Assembly (NCBI GenBank): GCA_963704885.1
Contig: CAVPIB010000001.1
Coordinates: forward strand, 416,001 to 480,000
Direction: 5' to 3'
DNA: 64,000 nucleotides
From: an uncultured Actinomycetes bacterium
GTDB lineage: Bacteria; Actinomycetota; UBA4738; HRBIN12
Shown here: piece by piece, positions 38,482-49,226 of the stretch
Layout: each line of letters opens with the position of its first letter
How positions within the stretch are numbered: position 1 is the stretch's first letter
Program-made: the position numbers and the translations under genes
The notes under the pieces: model-generated
Seen by the model: only the letters and a program-made list of their open reading frames with translations
What the model was told of the DNA's origin: nothing
Database searches by the model: none

Positions 38482-38847
38482 TCAGTCGCGCGGCGTGACG
38501 TCGCGGAGCGACACGATCCCCAACACACGGCCGTCCTCCACCACCGGCACGTGACGGAACCCCCGGTCGAGCATCAGATCCAGGGCCTCGCCGGCGTTTG
38601 ACCCAGGCGTCAAGGTGAAGGGGTCGGGCGTCATCCAGTGAGAGACCAGATGGCCCGCCGCGTCGAAGTCCGAGGCCAGGGCCCGCAGGATGTCGCGCTC
38701 AGTGAAGATCCCAGCCAGTCGTTCACCATCCATGATGAGCGCGGCCCCTACCTTCCCGGTGCCCATCACGGTGGCCGCCTCGGCGACGGTGGCGCCCGGC
38801 GTCACGCTGACCAATTCGGTGCTCATGACGTCCCGGATCGTGTTCAT
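38482..38847 (-). CDS. CBS-domain pair protein
   Basis: GIFTERDIL, WMTPDP, GFRHVPVV..GIVSLRD. Confidence 0.93.
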   Translation of the reverse strand: MNTIRDVMSTELVSVTPGATVAEAATVMGTGKVGAALIMDGERLAGIFTERDILRALASDFDAAGHLVSHWMTPDPFTLTPGSNAGEALDLMLDRGFRHVPVVEDGRVLGIVSLRDVTPRD

Positions 38848-38925
38848 GACCCCTCCCGCCGCGAGCCTAGTCGTCGCGACGCGGCCCGGGAAGCCCTACC
38901 CGGTGGGTTCCGGGCCAGCGGAGTA

Positions 38926-38981
38926 TTGACAACCCGCCACCAACCCGCGTAGGCTCGGTTCCAGTTATGAGAATCATTCTC
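38926..38981 (+). promoter_or_regulatory. znuC promoter with a Fur/Zur-type box
   Basis: TTGACA (38926)-N18-TAGGCT (38950). Palindrome GAGAAT-C-ATTCTC at 38969-38981, upstream of an operon encoding a Fur-family regulator. Confidence 0.8.
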
Positions 38982-39011
38982 GACTACTCGAGACGTTCCG
39001 AGGTGAACTGA

Positions 39012-39788
39012 GTGGAGGCCGTCGATCGTCGCAACGAGTCGACCTCGACCCTGCTCGAGGCGCGGAACGTGACCTTCGCCTACGGGCGCACTGACGTTCT
39101 CCAGGACGTGAGCCTCTCGATCGGACCGGGTGAGTTCGTGGCGCTGGTGGGGCCGAACGGTTCGGGGAAGTCCACCCTCCTGCGGATCCTCCTCGGCGTG
39201 CTGGCACCACGAGCGGGGTCCGTGTCGCTCTTCGGGACCACGCCACGGCATCTCCGTGATCGATCGCGACTCGGTTACGTCCCGCAGCGGCCCTCGCTCG
39301 CGTCCGAGGTCCCGGCGACCGTCGCCGAGATCGTGTCTGCGGGACGGCTCGAGCGAGGCCGTTGGTGGCGGCGGCTGGGCGATGCCGATGGGCAAGCGGT
39401 CCAGCATGCTCTGGAATCGGTCGGCCTGGTCCCGGACGCTGAGCGGCCGCTGAACGAGCTCTCGGGCGGACAGCAGCAGCGTGTATTCATCGCACGGGCG
39501 CTGGCGAGCGAGCCGCAACTCTTGGTGCTGGACGAGCCGATCGCCGGCGTCGACGCCGAGTCCCAGCGCCGGTTCCGCGACTCCTTGGTTCATCTCATCC
39601 AGGAGCACGGCGCCGGCGTGCTCCTCGTGTCGCACGAGCTGTCGGCCGTTGCTCACGACCTGGATCGTGTGATCGTCCTGAAAGGCCGGGTGCTCTTCGA
39701 TGGACCGCCGGCCCAGCTGGCAGCCTCCGGCGTGTCCCTCGGAGTGCACGCGGAGGATCTTCCTCTATGGCTGGAAGGGCTCCGATGA
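39012..39788 (+). CDS. znuC: Zn/Mn ABC ATP-binding protein (ZnuC-like)
   Basis: GPNGSGKST, GYVPQR, LSGGQQQRVFIARAL, LDEP. Confidence 0.88.
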   Translation: MEAVDRRNESTSTLLEARNVTFAYGRTDVLQDVSLSIGPGEFVALVGPNGSGKSTLLRILLGVLAPRAGSVSLFGTTPRHLRDRSRLGYVPQRPSLASEVPATVAEIVSAGRLERGRWWRRLGDADGQAVQHALESVGLVPDAERPLNELSGGQQQRVFIARALASEPQLLVLDEPIAGVDAESQRRFRDSLVHLIQEHGAGVLLVSHELSAVAHDLDRVIVLKGRVLFDGPPAQLAASGVSLGVHAEDLPLWLEGLR

Positions 39789-40633
39789 TCGCCGCACTGC
39801 CACTTCCGTATCCGTTCGACACGACCGCGATGCAGACCGCGTTGGTCGCATGCGTCGCCGTCGGCACGGTCGCTCCCATGATCGGAACGTTCCTGGTCCA
39901 GAAGCGCCTGTCGTTGATCGGCGACGGCGTCGGACACGTTGCGTTCGCGGGCGTGGGCGCAGGGTTGCTTCTCGGCGTCTGGCCCGTCTGGACGGCGCTG
40001 GTGTTCGCGGTGATAGGGGCCGTCGGTGTCGAGTTCCTGCGGATACGCCGCAAGGCGTCCGGAGATCTGGCGCTCGCCCTCTTCTTCTATACGGGTATCG
40101 CGCTGGGCGTCGTGTTCGCCAGCCGCGCCGGCAACCTGGACTTCGAGACGCTCCCGTACCTGTTCGGGGATCCGTTCACGGTGACCCGCACCGGCCTCGC
40201 CACGCTCCTGGCCCTCGGCGTCGTCGTCATGGCCGGCGCCGGCGCCCTGCGGCGCGTCCTGTTCGCCGTCGTTACCGATGAAGACTGGTCCCGGGTGGCG
40301 GGGCTCCCAGTCGAGGGACTCAGCATCGTCCTGGCGGCGCTGACCGCGGCCGTCATCGTCGCCGGGATGCGGGTGGTAGGGATCCTCCTGGTGGCGGCGA
40401 TGACGGTCCTCCCGGTGGCTTCTGCCCAGCTGCTCGCGCGCTCGTTCCGGAACACGCTGCGACTCGCCGTGGCGATCGGAGGGATGTCATCCGTCCTCGG
40501 CCTTGCCCTCGGCCGGATCCTGCATGTCGCCCCGGGCGGTGCGATCGTCCTGGTAGCGGCGGCGTTCTTCGCGGGCGTTGCGCTGGTGAAGGGTGGAGCG
40601 CTCAAGGTGTTCGAGATCGAGGCGCACCGGTGA
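39785..40633 (+). CDS. znuB: Zn/Mn ABC permease (ZnuB-like)
   Basis: SLIGDGVGHVAFAG, YLFGD, VVGILLVAA. Confidence 0.88.
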   Translation: MIAALPLPYPFDTTAMQTALVACVAVGTVAPMIGTFLVQKRLSLIGDGVGHVAFAGVGAGLLLGVWPVWTALVFAVIGAVGVEFLRIRRKASGDLALALFFYTGIALGVVFASRAGNLDFETLPYLFGDPFTVTRTGLATLLALGVVVMAGAGALRRVLFAVVTDEDWSRVAGLPVEGLSIVLAALTAAVIVAGMRVVGILLVAAMTVLPVASAQLLARSFRNTLRLAVAIGGMSSVLGLALGRILHVAPGGAIVLVAAAFFAGVALVKGGALKVFEIEAHR

Positions 40634-41061
40634 CCGAGACCGTTCACCAGACGACCGACATCCGGCTACGGGAGGCCGGACAGCGCTACACGGATCAGCG
40701 TCGCGAGCTGGTGGAGTTGCTAGCGAACCATGGCCCGCTCTCTATCCCCGAGGTGATGAGCGGCCATCGAGGGCTGAAGCAGAGCTCTGTCTACCGCAAC
40801 CTCGCTGTGCTGGAGCACGCAGGCGTGGTGCGGCGAGTCGTCACGGACGAGGAGTTCGGACGTTACGAGCTGGCCGAGGACCTGACCGGGCATCACCACC
40901 ATCTGATCTGCTCGACTTGCGGCCGTGTCGAGGACGTGACCGTCCCTCCTACGCTTGAGGGAACTCTGGATCGCACCCTCGACCGCCTGGCGAGGCGCGC
41001 AGGCTTCGCCGACGTCGATCACCGGCTGGACCTGATCGGCACGTGTGGCACCTGCGCCTGA
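40630..41061 (+). CDS. zur: Fur-family regulator, probably Zur
   Basis: SSVYRNL, HHHHLICSTCG, CGTC. Adjacent znuCB. Confidence 0.82.
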   Translation: MTETVHQTTDIRLREAGQRYTDQRRELVELLANHGPLSIPEVMSGHRGLKQSSVYRNLAVLEHAGVVRRVVTDEEFGRYELAEDLTGHHHHLICSTCGRVEDVTVPPTLEGTLDRTLDRLARRAGFADVDHRLDLIGTCGTCA

Positions 41062-41066
41062 GACCG

Positions 41067-41774
41067 TTACGGGGTCAGGTACGGCCGCCGCGGCTGGGGG
41101 ATGCCGGTCACCCGGCTCGCATCGACGATGATCTGGTTTCCGAGCGGGTAGATGCGGCCCGTGACGCTCACCCAGTCGTCGGCCTGGAATCGTCCCGGTG
41201 GGACGTTCACCACCAGGACCTGTGCGCTGGTGGCATCGGCCACACAGCACGTGATCACGTAGCGGGTGAGCAGGATCTCGTCGGCCGCGGTGCCGGTCTC
41301 ACGCCAGACGAATCCCTCCAGCGCCACCTGCTCGCCGGCACGCGAGCGAAGGGCGACCATCCCCGCCTTCGACGTCTGCGCGGCAGCCACGTCGATGAAG
41401 GACAACTCTCCCGAGGCGATGTCGTCGGCCGAAACGCTCACGCCGGATCCCACGAACCCGGCGCGTCGGCCGAGCGCATAGCCGGAGAGCGTGGCGGGGG
41501 GCAGGGCCACGATCAGTGCCACGGGGATCGCGATCACGGCGAGCGTCCAGGAAGTGGTGGGAAGCAAGGGGTCCCGGTTCACGGTCCTGGCGCTGGCAAG
41601 CCGCAGCACGGCGGCGATCGTCAGCAGTGCCGCGCCGGTCGGTACGACCCAAAACGTCCTGGTCGACAGATAAAGCGACCAGCGCCCAGTGACCAGGAGG
41701 AACCAGAACAAGCCGGCCCAGGCCACCAGGACAAGTCCTGCCGCCACGCGAGATGCGTTCCATGACCGGTTCAA
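41067..41774 (-). CDS. TIGR03943/YcgQ-like (DUF1980) permease partner
   Basis: N-terminal TM helices, LEGFV, RYVITCCVADA, DDWVSVTG, PRRPYL. Confidence 0.88.
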   Translation of the reverse strand: MNRSWNASRVAAGLVLVAWAGLFWFLLVTGRWSLYLSTRTFWVVPTGAALLTIAAVLRLASARTVNRDPLLPTTSWTLAVIAIPVALIVALPPATLSGYALGRRAGFVGSGVSVSADDIASGELSFIDVAAAQTSKAGMVALRSRAGEQVALEGFVWRETGTAADEILLTRYVITCCVADATSAQVLVVNVPPGRFQADDWVSVTGRIYPLGNQIIVDASRVTGIPQPRRPYLTP

Positions 41775-42784
41775 CCGAACACCACCTGCATCCACATCGT
41801 CCCGACGAGCGTGACCGAGAACACCACCCCGGTGACGGTCCACAGGAACGTCTTGCTGAAGGTCCCCACGTAGAGCGCGGCTAGCTTCAGGTCGATCATG
41901 GGACCGGCTACCAGGAACGCCAGCTGCGCGGAGGGGCCGAACAGCGTGAACGACGACGCGACGAACGCGTCCGACTCCGAGCAGAGCGACATCAGGAACG
42001 CGAGCACCATCATGGCCACCAGCGAGAGGATCGGGAGGTCCGCGACCTTGCCGACGAGCGCCTGGGGAACGAACGTCTGGACCGCCGCCGCGATGGCCGC
42101 TCCCATCACCAGGAAGCGGCCCATGAACACCACGTCGCCCGTGAGATGGGAAGCGAACCGCGCCCAACGCCGTTGGTCGGGCTCCTGCTCCTCCGCGACA
42201 TCGTCGTGCCGCGGACGCAGCAGATCCTCTTTGCGGGTGTTGCCCACCACCCATCCGACCGCGACGGCCACTAGGAAGCCCAGGGCAATCCGTCCGAGCA
42301 CCATCGTCCAGAGCGTGTCCCGACCGCGGTAGGCGACGAACGTCGACGCTACGACCACGGGATTCAGGATGGGTGCGGCGAGCATGAACGTGACGGCGGC
42401 CGCAGGTGCCAGCCCTTTCTGGGCCAGCCGTCGCGCAACCGGCACCGAGCCGCACTCGCAGACCGGGAAGGCCACCCCTGCGAGCGCGGCGGCGGGGAGC
42501 TGCAACGGACGGGGTAGGTGTCCCAGCCGTGCGAACACCGAGGTGGGGACGAACACTTCGATCGCCGCGGATACGAATGCCCCAAGCAGGACGAACGGCA
42601 TCGCCTCGACCAGCAACGAACCGAACACGATCAGGAAGTTCTGGAGCCACGCGATGCGCTCGGGGTCGGCCACGCGGACGACTAACGCGAGCACGGCGAG
42701 CGTTGCGATCACCAGGAGCGCGGGCCGTCGCGACGATCTCGACTGAGGTGGCGAGACGGGAGGGCGCGCCACGTCCACGGCCAT
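41771..42784 (-). CDS. DUF318/YcgR-like predicted permease
   Basis: EAMPFVLLG, FPVCECGSVPVARRL, LAAPILNP, SLCSESDAF, GPMIDLK. Confidence 0.9.
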   Translation of the reverse strand: MAVDVARPPVSPPQSRSSRRPALLVIATLAVLALVVRVADPERIAWLQNFLIVFGSLLVEAMPFVLLGAFVSAAIEVFVPTSVFARLGHLPRPLQLPAAALAGVAFPVCECGSVPVARRLAQKGLAPAAAVTFMLAAPILNPVVVASTFVAYRGRDTLWTMVLGRIALGFLVAVAVGWVVGNTRKEDLLRPRHDDVAEEQEPDQRRWARFASHLTGDVVFMGRFLVMGAAIAAAVQTFVPQALVGKVADLPILSLVAMMVLAFLMSLCSESDAFVASSFTLFGPSAQLAFLVAGPMIDLKLAALYVGTFSKTFLWTVTGVVFSVTLVGTMWMQVVFG

Positions 42785-44085
42785 CAGCAGTACCTCGAGA
42801 ACCCGACCGCGAACCCCGGATACGCGTCCGCGAACAGGGGAGTGCCGAAGGATGGCGAGGTCGATGTCTTCATCACCCCGACGACCGAATCGGACGTCGT
42901 TCCGCTCGCGACCATCACGTCCTCGTCCAGGAAGAGGCCTCCGGCTACGCTCGCCGCGACGACCGGAGCGCCCAGCGCGTCGTTCACCGACGTGGCAACG
43001 TCGGGCGGATCGTCTAGAGCGCCGTACGCGGTTCCCGTCGTTGTGAGGACGAACGTGGCGTCGGCGACCTGCCTCTGCACAGCGGCGACCATCGCTTCCG
43101 TTCGGCGCTCCAGCCGCTTCAAGGGACCGCTCACCACCACTCCCAGGATGTCGGTGATGCCGTCGGAGCCGTAGCCGGATCCGAGCAACCGGGAGATCTG
43201 CGGAACGAGGTCGCTCGCGCCCAACGCGAGATCGTCGCGATCGCTATCCACGTACCACGTCCCTCCGATCAACCCCCGTTCGGTCTCGTCGTCGGCGATG
43301 AGGCCGATCAGGGCGCGTTGTTCGTTCGCGCGATCCCAGTCGTCGGGGAAGGTGGCGATGATCGAAGTGGGCGCGTCGGAGCTCCACGCCCGAACCGCCG
43401 CTCCGTCTGGATCCCGGATGATGGTTCCGGTGACGCCGTGCTGGGACGGAAGACCGCCGCTACCGATCGTGGTGAGGATGGCGGCCGGATCTACCGGCAA
43501 CGAACCCGTCGTCCCGTCCAATGTCCAAGCACCCTCTCGGCGCAGCGCCTTGACCCAAGGTGTTCGGGCGTGTCTGAACTGGATGCTCCCGACTGCCTTC
43601 CAGACGATCTCGACCACGAGCGGGGATCCTGTTCCCGGTTGGACGACGTCCTCTATGGGCGTGCCACTCCTCACTTCCGGATGTGGGCGGTCGAAGCCGA
43701 TCAGTTCGGCCAGGGTCGGGGCGATCCGATCGACGGCGATCCCATCGGCCAGTTGGCCCGGGACGATGCCTCGTCCGAAGAAGATGATCGGAACGGCGTT
43801 CCTCGATGGGGCGTACGGGACCTGAGGCCATGGGACGCCGTCGTCCTCGGCCAGACCCGGACCTGGCGGCGTCGCACCCATCACTTCCGGGGAGCGACCC
43901 TGCCGGTAGCCGGCCGCGATCTGGTCCCTGAGCGTCGCTGGGAGCGAACAGAACGGGAGCGGACCCGCCGACTCCTCCTGCGGCGCGCAGCTGTTGCCCA
44001 CGCAGAGCGCACGCATCGCAACGGCGGGGGCTCCCACCAGCGCCAACGCGACGACCAGCACGGTGAGACGTCGCCCGGGTGCCAT
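42784..44085 (-). CDS. Secreted alkaline phosphatase-superfamily-like protein, permuted and lacking catalytic residues
   Basis: VPIIFFG...RIAPTLAELIG...GTP precedes LVVEIVWK...TIGSGGLPSQHGVTG. Paralogous to the gene at 44146. Confidence 0.7.
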   Translation of the reverse strand: MAPGRRLTVLVVALALVGAPAVAMRALCVGNSCAPQEESAGPLPFCSLPATLRDQIAAGYRQGRSPEVMGATPPGPGLAEDDGVPWPQVPYAPSRNAVPIIFFGRGIVPGQLADGIAVDRIAPTLAELIGFDRPHPEVRSGTPIEDVVQPGTGSPLVVEIVWKAVGSIQFRHARTPWVKALRREGAWTLDGTTGSLPVDPAAILTTIGSGGLPSQHGVTGTIIRDPDGAAVRAWSSDAPTSIIATFPDDWDRANEQRALIGLIADDETERGLIGGTWYVDSDRDDLALGASDLVPQISRLLGSGYGSDGITDILGVVVSGPLKRLERRTEAMVAAVQRQVADATFVLTTTGTAYGALDDPPDVATSVNDALGAPVVAASVAGGLFLDEDVMVASGTTSDSVVGVMKTSTSPSFGTPLFADAYPGFAVGFSRYC

Positions 44086-44145
44086 GTGTTCGAGGCTACC
44101 GCTTGGGTTGTCGTTACGGGCGTGGTCGGGGACCCTAGTCGGCCA

Positions 44146-45796
44146 GTGACCCCCAAACGCTTGGTCTTATTCCTGCTCGCCCTTGGGCTCGTCGCGTCCT
44201 CCGCCGTCGCGCTTCCCAGGGCGCCGGCCCGCGCGCAGTCCTCTGATCAGGACTTGGCTGATCTGGCTTGCTCGCTGCCGCACGACTTCTTGCTTAGAAC
44301 CTGGCGAGGGTGGCGCCTGGACCGAGGCGCTCAACTCTCCTACATCCCGCAGGAGCCGAACTTCGTGGGCGCGGGACTGCCTCATGTGGGTCCGTGGGAC
44401 TACGTCCAAGACGTGCCGATGCTCTGGTACGGCCCGCCGTTCGTTCCCGCGAGAGGGAGCGTGTCGAGGCCTGTAACCGTTGCGGGCATCGCGCCCACGG
44501 TCGGCGAACTCCTGCACTTCGGCGGGTTCCGGGCGATCGATGGCCGGCCCATGACCGAGGCCATAGAGCCGAATGACCGGGTGCCGAGACTTATCGTCAC
44601 GATGATCTGGGACGCGGGTGGCGTCAACGTCCTGGACGAATGGCCCGACGCGCACCCCTATCTGGATCAACTGATCGCGAAGGGCACATGGTACGAGGAC
44701 ACGTCCGTGGGTTCGTCGCCGACGAGCACCGCCCAGGTCCACGCCACGATCGGCACGGGCGCGTTCCCGAACCACCACGGGATCACCGGCCACCATCTGA
44801 TCATCGGCGACCGGCTGACCAGCCCATGGAACGCCGGCCCCGCGTTCATGATCGAGCCCACGATCGGGGACCTCTACGACGTCGCCATGGACAACGAGCC
44901 CGTCGTGGGCATCGTGGGCACGGTCGACATCCACTTCGGGATGCTGGGGCACGGGTCGTTCTTCACAGGTGGTGACCGCGACATCGCACTCACTCGATCG
45001 GTGATCGGGGGCGAGACCCTCACCGACGAGGGGTTCGAGTGGAACCTGCCGCCGCGCGACGCCGCGTACTACAAGCTCGCGAAGTACGCGAACGACGTGC
45101 CCGGGTTCGACGATGACGTGCGCCGTGTCGACCAGGCCGACGGCAAGCTCGATGGCCTGTGGCGCGACAACGCCATCGACCAGCTCCTGAAGGGATTCGA
45201 CACGCCCGCGCGCACGCCATACCAGGAACGCGTGATCGAAACGGTCATCCAGAAGGAGGGGTTCGGCGAGGACGAGATCCCCGATCTGCTGTACCTGAAC
45301 TTCAAGGAGATCGACTACGTCAGCCACGTCTGGTCCATGAACTCACTCGAGATGCGCGATGCAGTAGTCGTGCAGGATCAGGCGCTCAAGCGGTTCGTCT
45401 CGTTCCTCAACGAGCAGGTCGGGAAAGGGACCTGGGTGCTCGCGCTCACCGCGGATCACGGCGCCATGCCCGACCCCGAGTTCTCGGGCGGTTTCCAGAT
45501 CTCGACGGGACCGATAGGGACGGGGATAGATGAGAGCTTCGATACGGACGGCGACGACATACCGGTCGTGGATCTGGTCCAGCCCTCGCAGGTCTTCCTT
45601 AACGTGGATGAGCTCGAGGAGAACGGCTTCACGATCGGCGACGTTTCGCGATACATCATGACGCTGACGCAGGCGCAGACGGCGGGCCCGGGTCAAACGG
45701 TCGATCCCGGCGACCGCCAACGATACCGTGTTCCAGGCGGCGTTCCCATCCCAGCTGATGGAGAGCCTGCCCTGTCTGCCCGAGGCTCGCCGGTAG
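44146..45796 (+). CDS. Secreted PafA/NPP-like alkaline phosphatase-superfamily enzyme, apparently circularly permuted (frameshift near 45708)
   Basis: IWD, PTSTAQVHATIGTG..P..HGI, DYVSH and LTADHG motifs. Removing one base near 45708 gives VFQAAFPSQLMESLPCLPEARR-stop. Confidence 0.85.
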
Positions 45797-45809
45797 GATT
45801 CGACCTCGG

Positions 45810-48800
45810 ATGACGCAAACCGACGGCTCGCTTCGACCGACGCACGCGGACGTTTCCGTCGGTGGCAGTGGCCGGCTGGGCTCCTGGTGGGCCATCGGTG
45901 GGTTCACTGTCTTGATGCTGTTGGCGCTCAGCTGGCCCTTCTTGCGCGATCCCTCGCTGTCCGCCCCCACTCGCGACCCGGCCTGGTACACGTGGCGTGC
46001 GAACGTGATCATGGAGTCCGATCCCGCGTCGGTGGTCGGTGAGTGGGGGCCCGAGGGGCTGTTCTCAGGCGGGTACAGGGTCACCACGCCACTCGCAGGC
46101 GCACTGCTCCAGCGCGTGGCCGGGATCGACACGTACTCATTCAGCGCCTTCCTCATGATCGGCATCCCGGTGCTGACCGGCTTGGCGCTCGGTGTCGGCG
46201 CGCTCAGGAGCCGAGGCGATCCGCTGGCGATGCTCTTGACCATGCTCGCCACGGTCGCCTTGTTCCTGACCACCCCGTACGTCGGCTATCTGGACAACAT
46301 CACGGTCCTGTTCCTGCTGTCGCTCACGCTCCCGTTCCTGCATGAAGCGCGAACCTCGTGGGGAGCGCGCTCAGCCCTGTTCCTGATCGGGATGGCGGCT
46401 GCATTCACGCATCCGACCACCTGCGTGGTCTTCGGCGTGGTGTTGATGGCCGTCTTCGGCTGGCACTTCCTGACCAGCCGCTTCTCGCTGGGGTCGGCGC
46501 TCAAGGCCGACGGACCGATGCTGATGGCAGCAGGGTTCGGGATGATCGGCGGCCTCGCGATGTGGATGGTCGGGATCTGGGGACAGACCGCGAGTCTCGC
46601 GGAGGCGGCGCTACCGCCGCCGTACACGAAGGAGTTCTTCACCGCCCGCCTGGTCGAGTGGGTCGGGTCGCTTCAGCCGATCGTGATCGTTCCGTTCATC
46701 GTGACAGCGATCGTCTCCACGGTCTTGCTGGCACGGCGGGAACGTCGACCTGCTCACACCTACGACCTGGCTTCCATCGGCTGGATGCTCGCCTTCGTCG
46801 GTGTTCTGACGGTGTTCACGTCAACGGTGGTCCCCTACTACCGATTCATGAACGCGTCGGCCGCGCCGATGGCTCTCACCGGTCTCGGCGCCTTCGCGGC
46901 GATCCGCTGGTTCCTGCGCCTGGACGGGAGGGCTCGGATCGCGGGGGTCGCCGGCGCGTTGTTGGTGGTGGGCTCGCTCGGTTGGGTGCTCGTCGACGGT
47001 TTGCAGCATCGATGGGTGACCGAGAAGAACCAATGGGCCAACCAGGGCGTGCGGACCTCGCTCGCCGCCGTGCATGAGGTGGTCAACGACTCGGGTCCGC
47101 GACCGATCGTCTTGGTCATGAACTACAACGACACCGACGATGCGACGGGCACGAACACCGCGTACGGATGGGCCAAGACCTTCACGAACGTGTTCCGCAC
47201 CGGGCTCGACGGGGACTCGGCCGGTTACCAGACGACATTCCTGGGGACCGTGGACGATCTCCGTGCCGGGCGGGCGACGGTCGGCGCCAGCGAGGGCTAC
47301 ACAGAGGCGGCGTCGCAGCACTTCGACGAGCTCCAGACGCGCATGTCCTCGTATCCGGAGGACCCACTCGTCTTCTTGATCGGCCAGTACTACCGAGGGC
47401 TCTGCAACGGGGTCGAAGCCTGTGATGAGACGACCGAGCAGCGGCTCTTCGAGGAGGCGATCGCCGGCGCGATCGAGGTGGGTCCGGACACTTACGCGTT
47501 GACGGGGGATGGGTTCTTCACGCCGCCGACCGATGCGGTAGAGCTCGCTCGTGATGCCGCCACGACCGAGGCCGATCGGTTGGAGAACCATCCCGGCGCG
47601 TTCGGTGACCCTCTGCACACGCTCAGGGTGCTCTTCGGCCTGGCGTTCCTCCTGGTCCTGCCTGGCATGATCGCGGCGCCATGGTTCGGCCTGCGTGACA
47701 CCGCCGGCCGGATCGCACTCGTCCCCGCGATGTCGATCGTGCTCACCCTCCTGTCCGGCATCGCGGTGCTCGCCATCTGGCGAGGGCCGCTCACCACTCC
47801 GAAGGCCTGGGTGGTGGTGGCCGCCTCGGCGACGGTGGCGGCAGGTCTCCGGCTGGGGGCGCCAGCTCTGCTCCGTGTCCTGAACTCGTTCGGTGGGTTC
47901 TTCAACGACCTGTTCGGCGTCTTTTCCAACAAGGCGTTCGCCACGCTGATGGGTGTGCAGTTCTTGGTGCAGGCCGGACAGGGCGTGATCCAGGGGGCGA
48001 TCGCGAAATCGATCGCGTTCGGCGGCGAGAAGGGCTTCGACGTCACGGTGGTGCCTTCGGCGCAATACCTGTTGAAGGTGGTGCTGGCGCTGTACGTGCC
48101 GTACACGCTGGTGAGCCCGTTCATCGGCGTGGTCATCGACCGGACCGAACGGCGCCGGATCCTCACGTGGTCCAACATCGTGGTCGCGGGCGTGGTCGCC
48201 GTGGTCGCGGTCGCGTTCATGTTGCCGCTCGGGAGCGAAACCTCCGAGGGCAACGTGGGCGCGACGGTGGCGTTGATCGTCGGGCTACTCTTCATCCAGG
48301 GTTGCGTGCGCGTGGCTCTCGCGGTGAAGAGCGCCGCCATCCCCGACGTGCTGTCGGGGATCGACCTGCTTCAGGGGAACGGCCTTTCGCAGGCAGGTGG
48401 AGCGCTCTTCCAGGTGATCGGGATCGGCTTCGCGTTCGGCGCGGCGGCGGCATTCCCCACGTGGATCGTGGTGGTCCTGGGTGCCGGAGTCCTGGTCGTG
48501 GCGTCGGTGGTCGCCCGAAGGCTCGAGCGGATGGAGCTGCATCCGAAGCAGACCAGCTTCGGCGCGGAGGCCAAGCAGGTGATCGCGAACATCGTGGCCG
48601 GCTTGAAGGAGGTCGCCTCGCGCCCGCCGGCCGCGCTCGGGTTGTTCTCGTTCCAGATGCTGCGCTACCAGTTCTGGGGTTTCTGCCTGTTCACGTTCGG
48701 CCTGTACGCGAAGAACCTCGTGGAGAGCGGTGCCGACAACCTCGGGCTGGCGCTCGTCGGCGGTGGCGGGTTCTTGGGTGGCGCGCTCGGCCTAGTGCTC

Positions 48801-49226
48801 GCGCAGAAGTGGAAGGATCGCGTGCCGCCCATCCGGTTGTTGCTTGGCGCCATGTTCGCGCTCGGCGCCGGGGCTTTGGTGTTCGGCTCTCTCGTGTCAC
48901 TGGCCGGGTTCGCCGCCCTCTTGTTCGTGGGGTTCTTCACGTTCTTCCTGGGCAAGATCTCGGCCGACACGATCATGCAGCAGTCCATGCCCGACGACTT
49001 CCGCGGCCGCGCGTTCGCGCTGTTCGACATCGCCTATAACCTAGGATTCATCATCCCCGCGCTGATCTTGTCGTTCCTGTGGGTGGAGGGCGACGCCTTG
49101 CGGACCCGCGCGATCCTCATGGTGTCCGGTGCCGTGTTCCTTGCTCTCACCATGCTCATCTGGCGCTGGTCGATACGGATCCGCGACCAGTTCGCTCCCC
49201 AGGACGACCTGCTGGTCATCGAGTGA
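45810..49226 (+). CDS. 1138-aa polytopic membrane protein: GT-C-like N-terminal region fused to an MFS domain
   Basis: TM1 then RDPAWYTWRA, FTHPTT, PYYRF, soluble loop. C-terminal ~12 TM with PFIGVVIDRTERRRIL and MPDDFRGRAFALFD. Confidence 0.75.
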   Translation: MTQTDGSLRPTHADVSVGGSGRLGSWWAIGGFTVLMLLALSWPFLRDPSLSAPTRDPAWYTWRANVIMESDPASVVGEWGPEGLFSGGYRVTTPLAGALLQRVAGIDTYSFSAFLMIGIPVLTGLALGVGALRSRGDPLAMLLTMLATVALFLTTPYVGYLDNITVLFLLSLTLPFLHEARTSWGARSALFLIGMAAAFTHPTTCVVFGVVLMAVFGWHFLTSRFSLGSALKADGPMLMAAGFGMIGGLAMWMVGIWGQTASLAEAALPPPYTKEFFTARLVEWVGSLQPIVIVPFIVTAIVSTVLLARRERRPAHTYDLASIGWMLAFVGVLTVFTSTVVPYYRFMNASAAPMALTGLGAFAAIRWFLRLDGRARIAGVAGALLVVGSLGWVLVDGLQHRWVTEKNQWANQGVRTSLAAVHEVVNDSGPRPIVLVMNYNDTDDATGTNTAYGWAKTFTNVFRTGLDGDSAGYQTTFLGTVDDLRAGRATVGASEGYTEAASQHFDELQTRMSSYPEDPLVFLIGQYYRGLCNGVEACDETTEQRLFEEAIAGAIEVGPDTYALTGDGFFTPPTDAVELARDAATTEADRLENHPGAFGDPLHTLRVLFGLAFLLVLPGMIAAPWFGLRDTAGRIALVPAMSIVLTLLSGIAVLAIWRGPLTTPKAWVVVAASATVAAGLRLGAPALLRVLNSFGGFFNDLFGVFSNKAFATLMGVQFLVQAGQGVIQGAIAKSIAFGGEKGFDVTVVPSAQYLLKVVLALYVPYTLVSPFIGVVIDRTERRRILTWSNIVVAGVVAVVAVAFMLPLGSETSEGNVGATVALIVGLLFIQGCVRVALAVKSAAIPDVLSGIDLLQGNGLSQAGGALFQVIGIGFAFGAAAAFPTWIVVVLGAGVLVVASVVARRLERMELHPKQTSFGAEAKQVIANIVAGLKEVASRPPAALGLFSFQMLRYQFWGFCLFTFGLYAKNLVESGADNLGLALVGGGGFLGGALGLVLAQKWKDRVPPIRLLLGAMFALGAGALVFGSLVSLAGFAALLFVGFFTFFLGKISADTIMQQSMPDDFRGRAFALFDIAYNLGFIIPALILSFLWVEGDALRTRAILMVSGAVFLALTMLIWRWSIRIRDQFAPQDDLLVIE

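Follow-up and report, generated by a model that had tools for sequence, protein, structure and literature searches.

A widespread circularly permuted PafA-branch family of the alkaline phosphatase superfamily

In canonical PafA-type enzymes of the alkaline phosphatase (AP) superfamily, the last histidine of the bimetal site lies in the C-terminal part of the chain. The 64,000-nucleotide stretch of DNA analyzed here, from an uncultured Actinomycetes bacterium and hereafter called the window, holds a gene in which the corresponding segment appears to come first. Does this reversed order reflect a natural circular permutation, is the catalytic site still complete, and which kind of phosphoester chemistry would it support? 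An initial annotation had proposed an active, naturally permuted enzyme, and the residues on which it relied (His80, Asp156, Thr195, Asp390/His394 and Asp437/His438) were all found at the positions it gave. The features of the locus are listed in Table 1.

Table 1 Features of the permuted-enzyme locus, in window coordinates.
Feature	Position	Strand	Remarks
ArsP_1-type permease + DUF1980 gene	41067..42784	-	overlaps and lies downstream of the dead paralogue
Divergent paralogue, predicted catalytically dead, 433 aa	42784..44085	-	permuted in the same way; four cysteines invariant, among them Cys46 and the terminal Cys433
Circularly permuted PafA-type enzyme gene	44146..45813	+	555 aa in the assembled frame, of which the final ~33 aa do not follow the frame of homologues
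Putative Sec-type signal peptide, residues 1-30	44146..44235	+	basic start, hydrophobic helix, A-x-A site, no lipobox; pattern match
Cys42, N-terminal partner of proposed disulfide	44269..44271	+	maps to PafA ~445
Block B, old C-terminal part, residues 43-140	44272..44565	+	PafA chain 435-533 = PDB 446-544; His80 at 44383-44385
Linker, old C-terminus to old N-terminus, 6 residues	44566..44583	+	
Block A, old N-terminal part, residues 147-520	44584..45705	+	PafA 24-~430
Block A residues, codon starts	Asp156 44611; Thr195 44728; Lys387 45304; Asp390 45313; His394 45325; Asp437/His438 45454-45459		
Extra base in C3G2 run, +1 frameshift	45706..45710	+	assembly error or recent mutation
Homologous C-terminal segment, +1 frame	45707..45796	+	Cys543 at 45773-45775; stop TAG 45794-45796
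Membrane protein, 1138 aa, GT-C-like N-terminal part (lead only) fused to MFS domain	45810..49226	+	downstream of the enzyme

The order of the two blocks was examined by sequence comparison with enzymes of solved structure. Residues 43-140, which include His80, match the C-terminal part of PafA and stand ahead of a block that matches PafA 24-452. A phmmer search against solved structures returned PafA (5tj3, E 7.3e-17) in three non-collinear pieces, with query residues 43-140 on chain positions 435-533, 179-216 on 52-89 and 362-507 on 266-415. PafA chain numbers plus 11 give PDB numbers, as set by the substitutions T79S, N100A, K162A and R164A of 5too. A profile built from 89 family members likewise placed residues 147-498 on PafA chain 16-414 (E 2.1e-45) and residues 45-142 on 435-533 (E 2.4e-14), and recovered the same two blocks on SPAP/PhoK with E-values of 1.1e-30 and 9.5e-09, values that chance cannot account for.

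Homologues share this arrangement. Among 8000 candidates scored, 1415 were relatives at E <= 0.001, and 523 proteins were gathered by three homologue searches restricted to near lengths and one profile search. Block B precedes block A in 453/453 proteins holding both, the remaining 70 of the 523 holding one block or none; since every set was collected with permuted queries, this count demonstrates that the order is widespread rather than that canonical kin are absent. As a control, block B comes last in 12/12 canonical PafA-like proteins borne on plasmids, and no permuted member was found among the plasmid records searched. The source genome encodes four permuted paralogues, namely the window gene, its divergent neighbour, a lipoprotein on contig C8 and one protein on contig C1 near 1.003 Mb. 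A misassembly, or a chance match, would have to recur in all of the 453 proteins, which come from several collections, as well as in 79 genomic loci and in the four paralogues of one genome, and we consider it vanishingly improbable; misassembly is rejected, as independent assemblies have the reversed order in common. The non-collinear matches, the predicted structure described below and the block order of the homologues together bear out a natural permutation.

The permuted paralogue on contig C1 (L001:7293-10064 on the minus strand; G000:C1 ~1001300-1004060) lacks the cysteine pair discussed below and contains an internal twin-arginine-like stretch. It is read as one 923-codon frame into a second gene, which presumably encodes a protein resembling the aconitase-X catalytic subunit, and represents either a real fusion or a lost stop.

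The reading frame of the window gene is disturbed near its 3' end. From its GTG start at 44146 (+), the assembled frame runs to a TGA at 45811-45813, and its last ~33 residues are non-homologous. Homologues, ~550 aa long, share a C-terminal tail that is conserved and contains a cysteine. The window protein departs from them after residue 522, and the shift affects the last 28 residues; the matching tail is instead encoded in the +1 frame, which ends at the TAG at 45794-45796 and is 89.7% identical over 29 residues to residues 521-549 of the homologue P0005. The gene end at 45796 in the initial annotation coincides with this TAG, but the frame as assembled continues to the TGA, and the frameshift itself had gone unmentioned, as had the cysteine pair and the dead paralogue described below.

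Within the C3G2 run at 45706-45710, the window has one base that its relatives are without. We regard an assembly error as the probable cause, because a single base in a homopolymer is concerned, no decay is seen behind it, and similar breaks occur in other assemblies. The alternative, in which the permuted family is real and the window copy is a recently damaged allele whose genuine extra base removes the last cap strand and Cys543, appears unlikely. It would agree with the identical shifted tail of the database protein P0004, which derives from the same contig and is not independent, and with the lack of any frame break in eight neighbouring genes compared. It sits poorly with a one-base shift in a homopolymer that leaves the +1 frame so close to its homologue, and with similar breaks of the permuted-enzyme gene in assemblies of relatives (L034, L051, G009, G010 and P0056). 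A look for reads over the site turned up one DNA run, sharing a small fraction of words with the window, and no RNA run; the only contig of this DNA run spans 42906-43227, away from the frameshift. Were the frameshift real, the window copy would be left without its last cap strand and without Cys543. For structural work we used the intact homologue P0005, which is 87% identical and has matching numbering.

At the other end, the protein begins with what resembles a cleavable Sec signal. The A-x-A pattern is present in 104/109 orthologues and a lipobox pattern in 2/109, and the structure model has a helix at residues 3-20, within the signal-peptide region. Neither a sigma-70 promoter match nor a terminator match was found. 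Between the divergently transcribed pair, the 60-base spacer at 44086-44145 keeps its length (58-62) and its sequence in six close relatives and probably contains overlapping promoters with leaderless starts.

To locate the cut, an AlphaFold2 model of P0005 (89 alignment rows; mean pLDDT 94.3, pTM 0.91) was compared with solved structures. Foldseek ranked PafA and SPAP first, and VIA-align superposed model residues 142-548 on PafA 24-452 over 360 residues (Z 27.2, rmsd 3.4). Structural aligners of this kind are sequential and leave residues 43-140 unplaced, so that the placement of block B rests on sequence, in which residue 43 aligns to PafA 446. Read together, the alignment of residue 43 and the end of the superposition at PafA 452 show that the new ends meet at PafA ~445-452, in a loop of the cap domain. 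The local profile alignment stops before the last ~40 residues on canonical sequences, and the C-terminal end of the cut is taken from structural alignments and reading by eye. Inspected by eye, this cap loop varies in length among canonical enzymes. Relative to PafA, the chain is thus cut within a cap-domain surface loop (PafA ~445-448) while a short linker connects the old termini, and the segment with the last zinc-binding histidine is the first to be made. The linker between the old termini measures 5-11 residues in 81/82 representatives (members under 60% identity).

Profile and structure comparisons agree on the closest relatives. The protein scores 80.2 bits with PF01663, well above the Pfam cut-off of 23, and the P0005 model has the alpha/beta core fold of the AP superfamily. 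PafA (PDB 5TJ3/5TOO; NF042991) is the best match both by sequence (profile E 2.5e-63) and by fold (Z 27.2), and the permuted enzyme shares with it the two-zinc ligand set, the Thr nucleophile, the cap domain and export. It differs from PafA in the cut at ~445-448, the cysteine pair at the cut, a new lysine (Lys387) at the position of Ala302 and the replacement of Lys162, Arg164 and Asn100. With the PafA equivalog model NF042991 it reaches 104.2 bits against a cut-off of 650, and it lacks the canonical chain order. From the residue set that defines PafA, T79, K162 and R164 (10.1101/2020.11.24.383182), the threonine is kept and the other two are Thr259 and Asp261.

SPAP/PhoK of Sphingomonas (PDB 3Q3Q, 5XWI, 5XWK) ranks second (E 1.2e-42, Z 24.4) and matches through the same two blocks, but is of canonical order and has a K-D-R motif that the permuted enzyme has not kept. 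NPP/ENPP diesterases and phosphonoacetate hydrolase (PF01663) rank well below PafA and SPAP by sequence and structure; they share the bimetal core (Z 15-17) and are also without K-D-R, but are more distant and are of canonical order; three residues before the zinc-binding Asp, ENPP5 has Glu and the permuted enzyme Lys. The accessible text of PMC7132281 describes a further actinobacterial PF01663 enzyme, the c-di-AMP phosphodiesterase AtaC of Streptomyces, with a D-T-D-H-D-H-H site. A fused membrane domain of the LtaS/EptA type is absent from the permuted enzyme. No solved relative with the permuted chain order turned up in structure searches. Literature searches on permutation, taxon, residue or DUF1980 terms, subscription papers and supplements aside, returned no description of a permuted PafA-type family, and the accessible portions of PMC12839542, PMC7132281, PMC8812569, PMC10629569 and PMC12594817 do not mention one; the permutation in PMC9487903 concerns, in its accessible portion, SGNH hydrolases. 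The family is real and widespread, and apparently unpublished.

The cut site coincides with a pair of cysteines. Cys543 maps to PafA ~447-448, next to the position of Cys42. For counting, 290 full-length members of the ligand-carrying type were kept from the 523 proteins, leaving out fragmentary sequences, dead paralogues and copies of the window gene itself. Both cysteines are present in 197 of these members, neither in 89, the N-terminal one only in 4 and the C-terminal one only in 0; among the 82 representatives the corresponding numbers are 49, 30, 3 and 0. These counts reflect dependent events, largely from one clade, and a Fisher p computed from them overstates the association. On the tree, the pair requires three changes, which fits one gain and two losses. 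In 48/49 representatives bearing the pair, the mature part has no cysteine besides these two. An analysis of mutual information with APC (82 rows) skipped Cys42-Cys543, as fewer than 80% of the rows were filled at column 543; among the 15 best of 109,746 pairs were the cross-block pairs A62-Q482, Q88-S191 and A113-G189 and also C42-D332, and we give this ranking little weight.

Because an exported protein with only two cysteines has both of them at the severed bond, a Cys42-Cys543 disulfide probably stands in for the lost backbone bond in the clade of the window gene. Deeper permuted members without the pair imply that it arose after the permutation. Further degenerate permuted members (P0260, P0264, P0269 and L093:3594-4964) have kept the cysteine pair and lost ligands or the nucleophile; they are separate from the divergent dead paralogue next to the window gene.

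We then considered the catalytic site. All expected metal ligands and the Thr nucleophile are present, as the initial annotation had held, and align to PafA D38, T79, D305, H309, D352, H353 and H486. They are conserved across the 82 representatives, His80, Asp437 and His438 in all 82, Asp156 in 80, His394 in 79, and Thr195 and Asp390 in 78 each. In PafA, we take D305, H309 and H486 to be zinc ligands. The same role of D38, D352 and H353 is given in the accessible part of 10.1101/2020.11.24.383182. His80, which aligns with H486, is inferred to lie at the zinc site. From what is known of the family, fold and bimetal site would be rebuilt as in PafA, with one zinc bound by Asp156, Asp437 and His438 and the other by Asp390, His394 and His80; Thr195 would attack phosphorus, and the resulting phosphothreonine would then be hydrolysed. 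Conservation of the ligands and of the Thr nucleophile across the family makes it likely that the permuted enzyme is catalytically active. We consider it probable that the protein is a Sec-exported two-zinc phosphoesterase of the AP superfamily, derived from a PafA/PhoK-like ancestor through one old circular permutation.

The phosphate-binding residues have changed. The initial annotation had seen no evident PafA K-D-R motif, and rightly so: the window protein reads T259-V260-D261 at this place, and PafA Asn100, Lys162 and Arg164 are replaced by His216, Thr259 and Asp261. K-D-R is found in 11/12 canonical enzymes and in 0/82 permuted representatives. Conversely, a lysine three residues before Asp390, at the position of PafA Ala302, occurs in 77/82 permuted and 0/12 canonical sequences (Lys387 in the window protein); no lysine stands three before the zinc-binding Asp in the five solved-enzyme alignments examined. 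At the position of PafA Arg164, arginine was seen by eye in about 18/21 of the deepest permuted rows. In the 61-row clade that contains the enzymes of the source genome it is almost always lost, and His263 is mostly found; overall, 47/82 representatives have His263. The position equivalent to N100 is highly variable across the permuted clade.

From the loss of K-D-R it had been concluded that the enzyme may be a diesterase or transferase. The loss itself stands, but the step from it is only partly supported, as Lys387 may replace Lys162. That Lys387 has assumed some of the function of Lys162 has, in our view, about an even chance. According to the accessible part of 10.1101/2020.11.24.383182, PafA without K162 and R164 is an equally potent mono- and diesterase. 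Alteromonas PafA reportedly differs in preference from Bacteroidota PafA (PMC12594817, accessible part). Based on these two precedents and on the replacement of Lys162, Arg164 and Asn100, we favour, at about an even chance, a diester-leaning or broad phosphoesterase that would scavenge extracellular organic phosphate.

A specialised PafA-like phosphomonoesterase, in which Lys387, aided by His263 and His216, takes over from Lys162, Arg164 and Asn100 all binding of the monoester's oxygens, is rather unlikely by comparison with that even chance. In its favour are the swap pattern of Lys387 and K-D-R between permuted and canonical enzymes and the arginine retained in most of the deepest permuted rows. 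However, the clade of the window gene has Asp261 in place of Arg164 and His216 in place of Asn100, and the N100 position, as noted, is highly variable.

Next to the enzyme, on the opposite strand, lies a divergent paralogue with 449 relatives among 8000 scored. It shares the permutation of the enzyme, as seen from profile-profile comparison (E 5.6e-48) and from its model, residues 149-433 of which superpose on PafA 24-448 (Z 16.6), with Cys433 at PafA 448. Both cysteines of the pair are invariant in 109/109 of these proteins. The residue equivalent to Thr195 is Pro in 107/109, Asp156 is mostly replaced by Lys or Arg, and the start of the Asp390/His394 helix is deleted together with about 70 lid residues. 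Lacking a canonical site, the neighbour is, as judged from these replacements, catalytically dead.

Gene neighbourhoods were compared in 79 related loci, some of which are shortened by contig ends. The dead paralogue is present in 71, ArsP in 67, DUF1980 in 65, the GT-C-like gene in 71, the MFS domain in 62 and znuC/znuB/fur in 54-58; several loci contain tandem copies of the permuted enzyme. The dead paralogue is loosely tied to the ArsP/DUF1980 permease, since dead gene, ArsP and DUF1980 are jointly absent from four loci that retain the enzyme (L010, L029, L046, L067), and in two others (L006, L065) the dead gene is present but no permease is seen in the sequence examined.

At window 38847-41061 lies a znuC-znuB-fur operon without znuA, and no PF01297 match was found in the source genome (97% complete, all but 16 kb of it searched). 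A role of the dead paralogue as a stand-in for the missing ZnuA was considered and rejected, as znuA (PF01297) is present in 36/41 genomes searched, often just upstream of znuC. A palindrome at window 38968-38982, ahead of znuC, resembles Fur/Zur sites, and we assume that it belongs to a Fur/Zur regulator; similar sites are found ahead of the znu genes in 13/79 related loci. Since such a site is absent between the enzyme and the dead paralogue, Zur control of the divergent pair is unsupported.

Transferases with a Thr nucleophile, such as LtaS and EptA, exist in the AP superfamily. The neighbourhood raises the question whether the permuted enzyme could be a cell-envelope phosphotransferase or trimming enzyme whose target would be a glycan or lipid of the cell surface and whose partner would be the GT-C-like/MFS fusion encoded downstream. 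The GT-C-like gene comes next in 71/79 related loci and in the window overlaps the assembled stop, and among Atlas look-alikes of the fusion protein some members have DUF6541, AftA_N or PMT_2. The membrane part of the fusion protein has no Pfam match, however, which weakens the GT-C call. The enzyme itself has one hydrophobic segment, the N-terminal signal, and no further membrane domain; its closest solved relatives are hydrolases, and two other ligand-complete paralogues of the source genome lie in unrelated contexts. Such an envelope function seems improbable.

By source names, the 79 loci come nearly all from uncultured Actinomycetota. The family profile matches 37/41 related genomes and 55/301 genomes drawn from the phylum (tallies that include the unpublished genomes G029, G041, G085 and G154, which enter no other result). 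Strong full-length matches in the phylum sample are confined to five families (f1, f2, f6, f8 and f9), mostly with 3-5 copies per genome. Deeper permuted members are assigned by source name to Ca. Sericytochromatia, Acidobacteria, Bacteroidota and a cyanobacterium, and look-alike clusters in the Atlas are commonest in Actinomycetota, Bacteroidota and Acidobacteriota. In a quick block A tree, a branch with SH-aLRT 100 separates all 82 permuted rows from the others; a single origin of the permutation is compatible with this tree, which has just 12 canonical rows, but unproven.

The weak matches of the family profile in the phylum belong to a second, NPP-like permuted type, found in other families of Actinomycetota (L089-L092 and L101-L103; genomes G222, G146, G185, G235, G132, G196 and G102). 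Among solved structures it is closest to NPPs. Its His segment lies ahead of the Asp/Thr block, about 35-40 residues follow the D-H-G motif before the catalytic part ends, and an equivalent of Lys387 is lacking. It is probably an independent permutation with a different cut site, so that the AP fold has seemingly undergone permutation on more than one occasion. Two AtaC-like proteins (L105:922-2070 and L106:721-2064) have the helix that ends the fold at their N-terminus and the last His still at the C-terminus (3.6 bits, a weak match); a third, smaller permutation is a possible reading of their sequences.

The AP superfamily is a model of enzyme evolution, and mutations have been made at nearly all positions of PafA. 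The permuted family offers a natural experiment on this background, with the same zinc site in altered connectivity, an apparent disulfide in place of a peptide bond and a lysine on another strand. The finding is less surprising in that proteins are often circularly permuted and the underlying chemistry probably follows a known type. A far-reaching and, in our judgement, doubtful reading holds that one ancient permutation founded a multi-phylum AP branch with a rebuilt phosphate site, the lysine moving from position 162 to 302, and that an actinobacterial sub-branch then added the disulfide, several exported paralogues of differing specificity and a pseudoenzyme serving as extracellular binding partner of the ArsP/DUF1980 permease. 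If true, the locus would encode a new uptake module for an organophosphate, made of a hydrolase and a pseudoenzyme receptor. As the family scores far below the cut-off of the curated PafA model, surveys of phosphorus cycling would probably overlook a multi-copy exported phosphoesterase of uncultured Actinomycetota.
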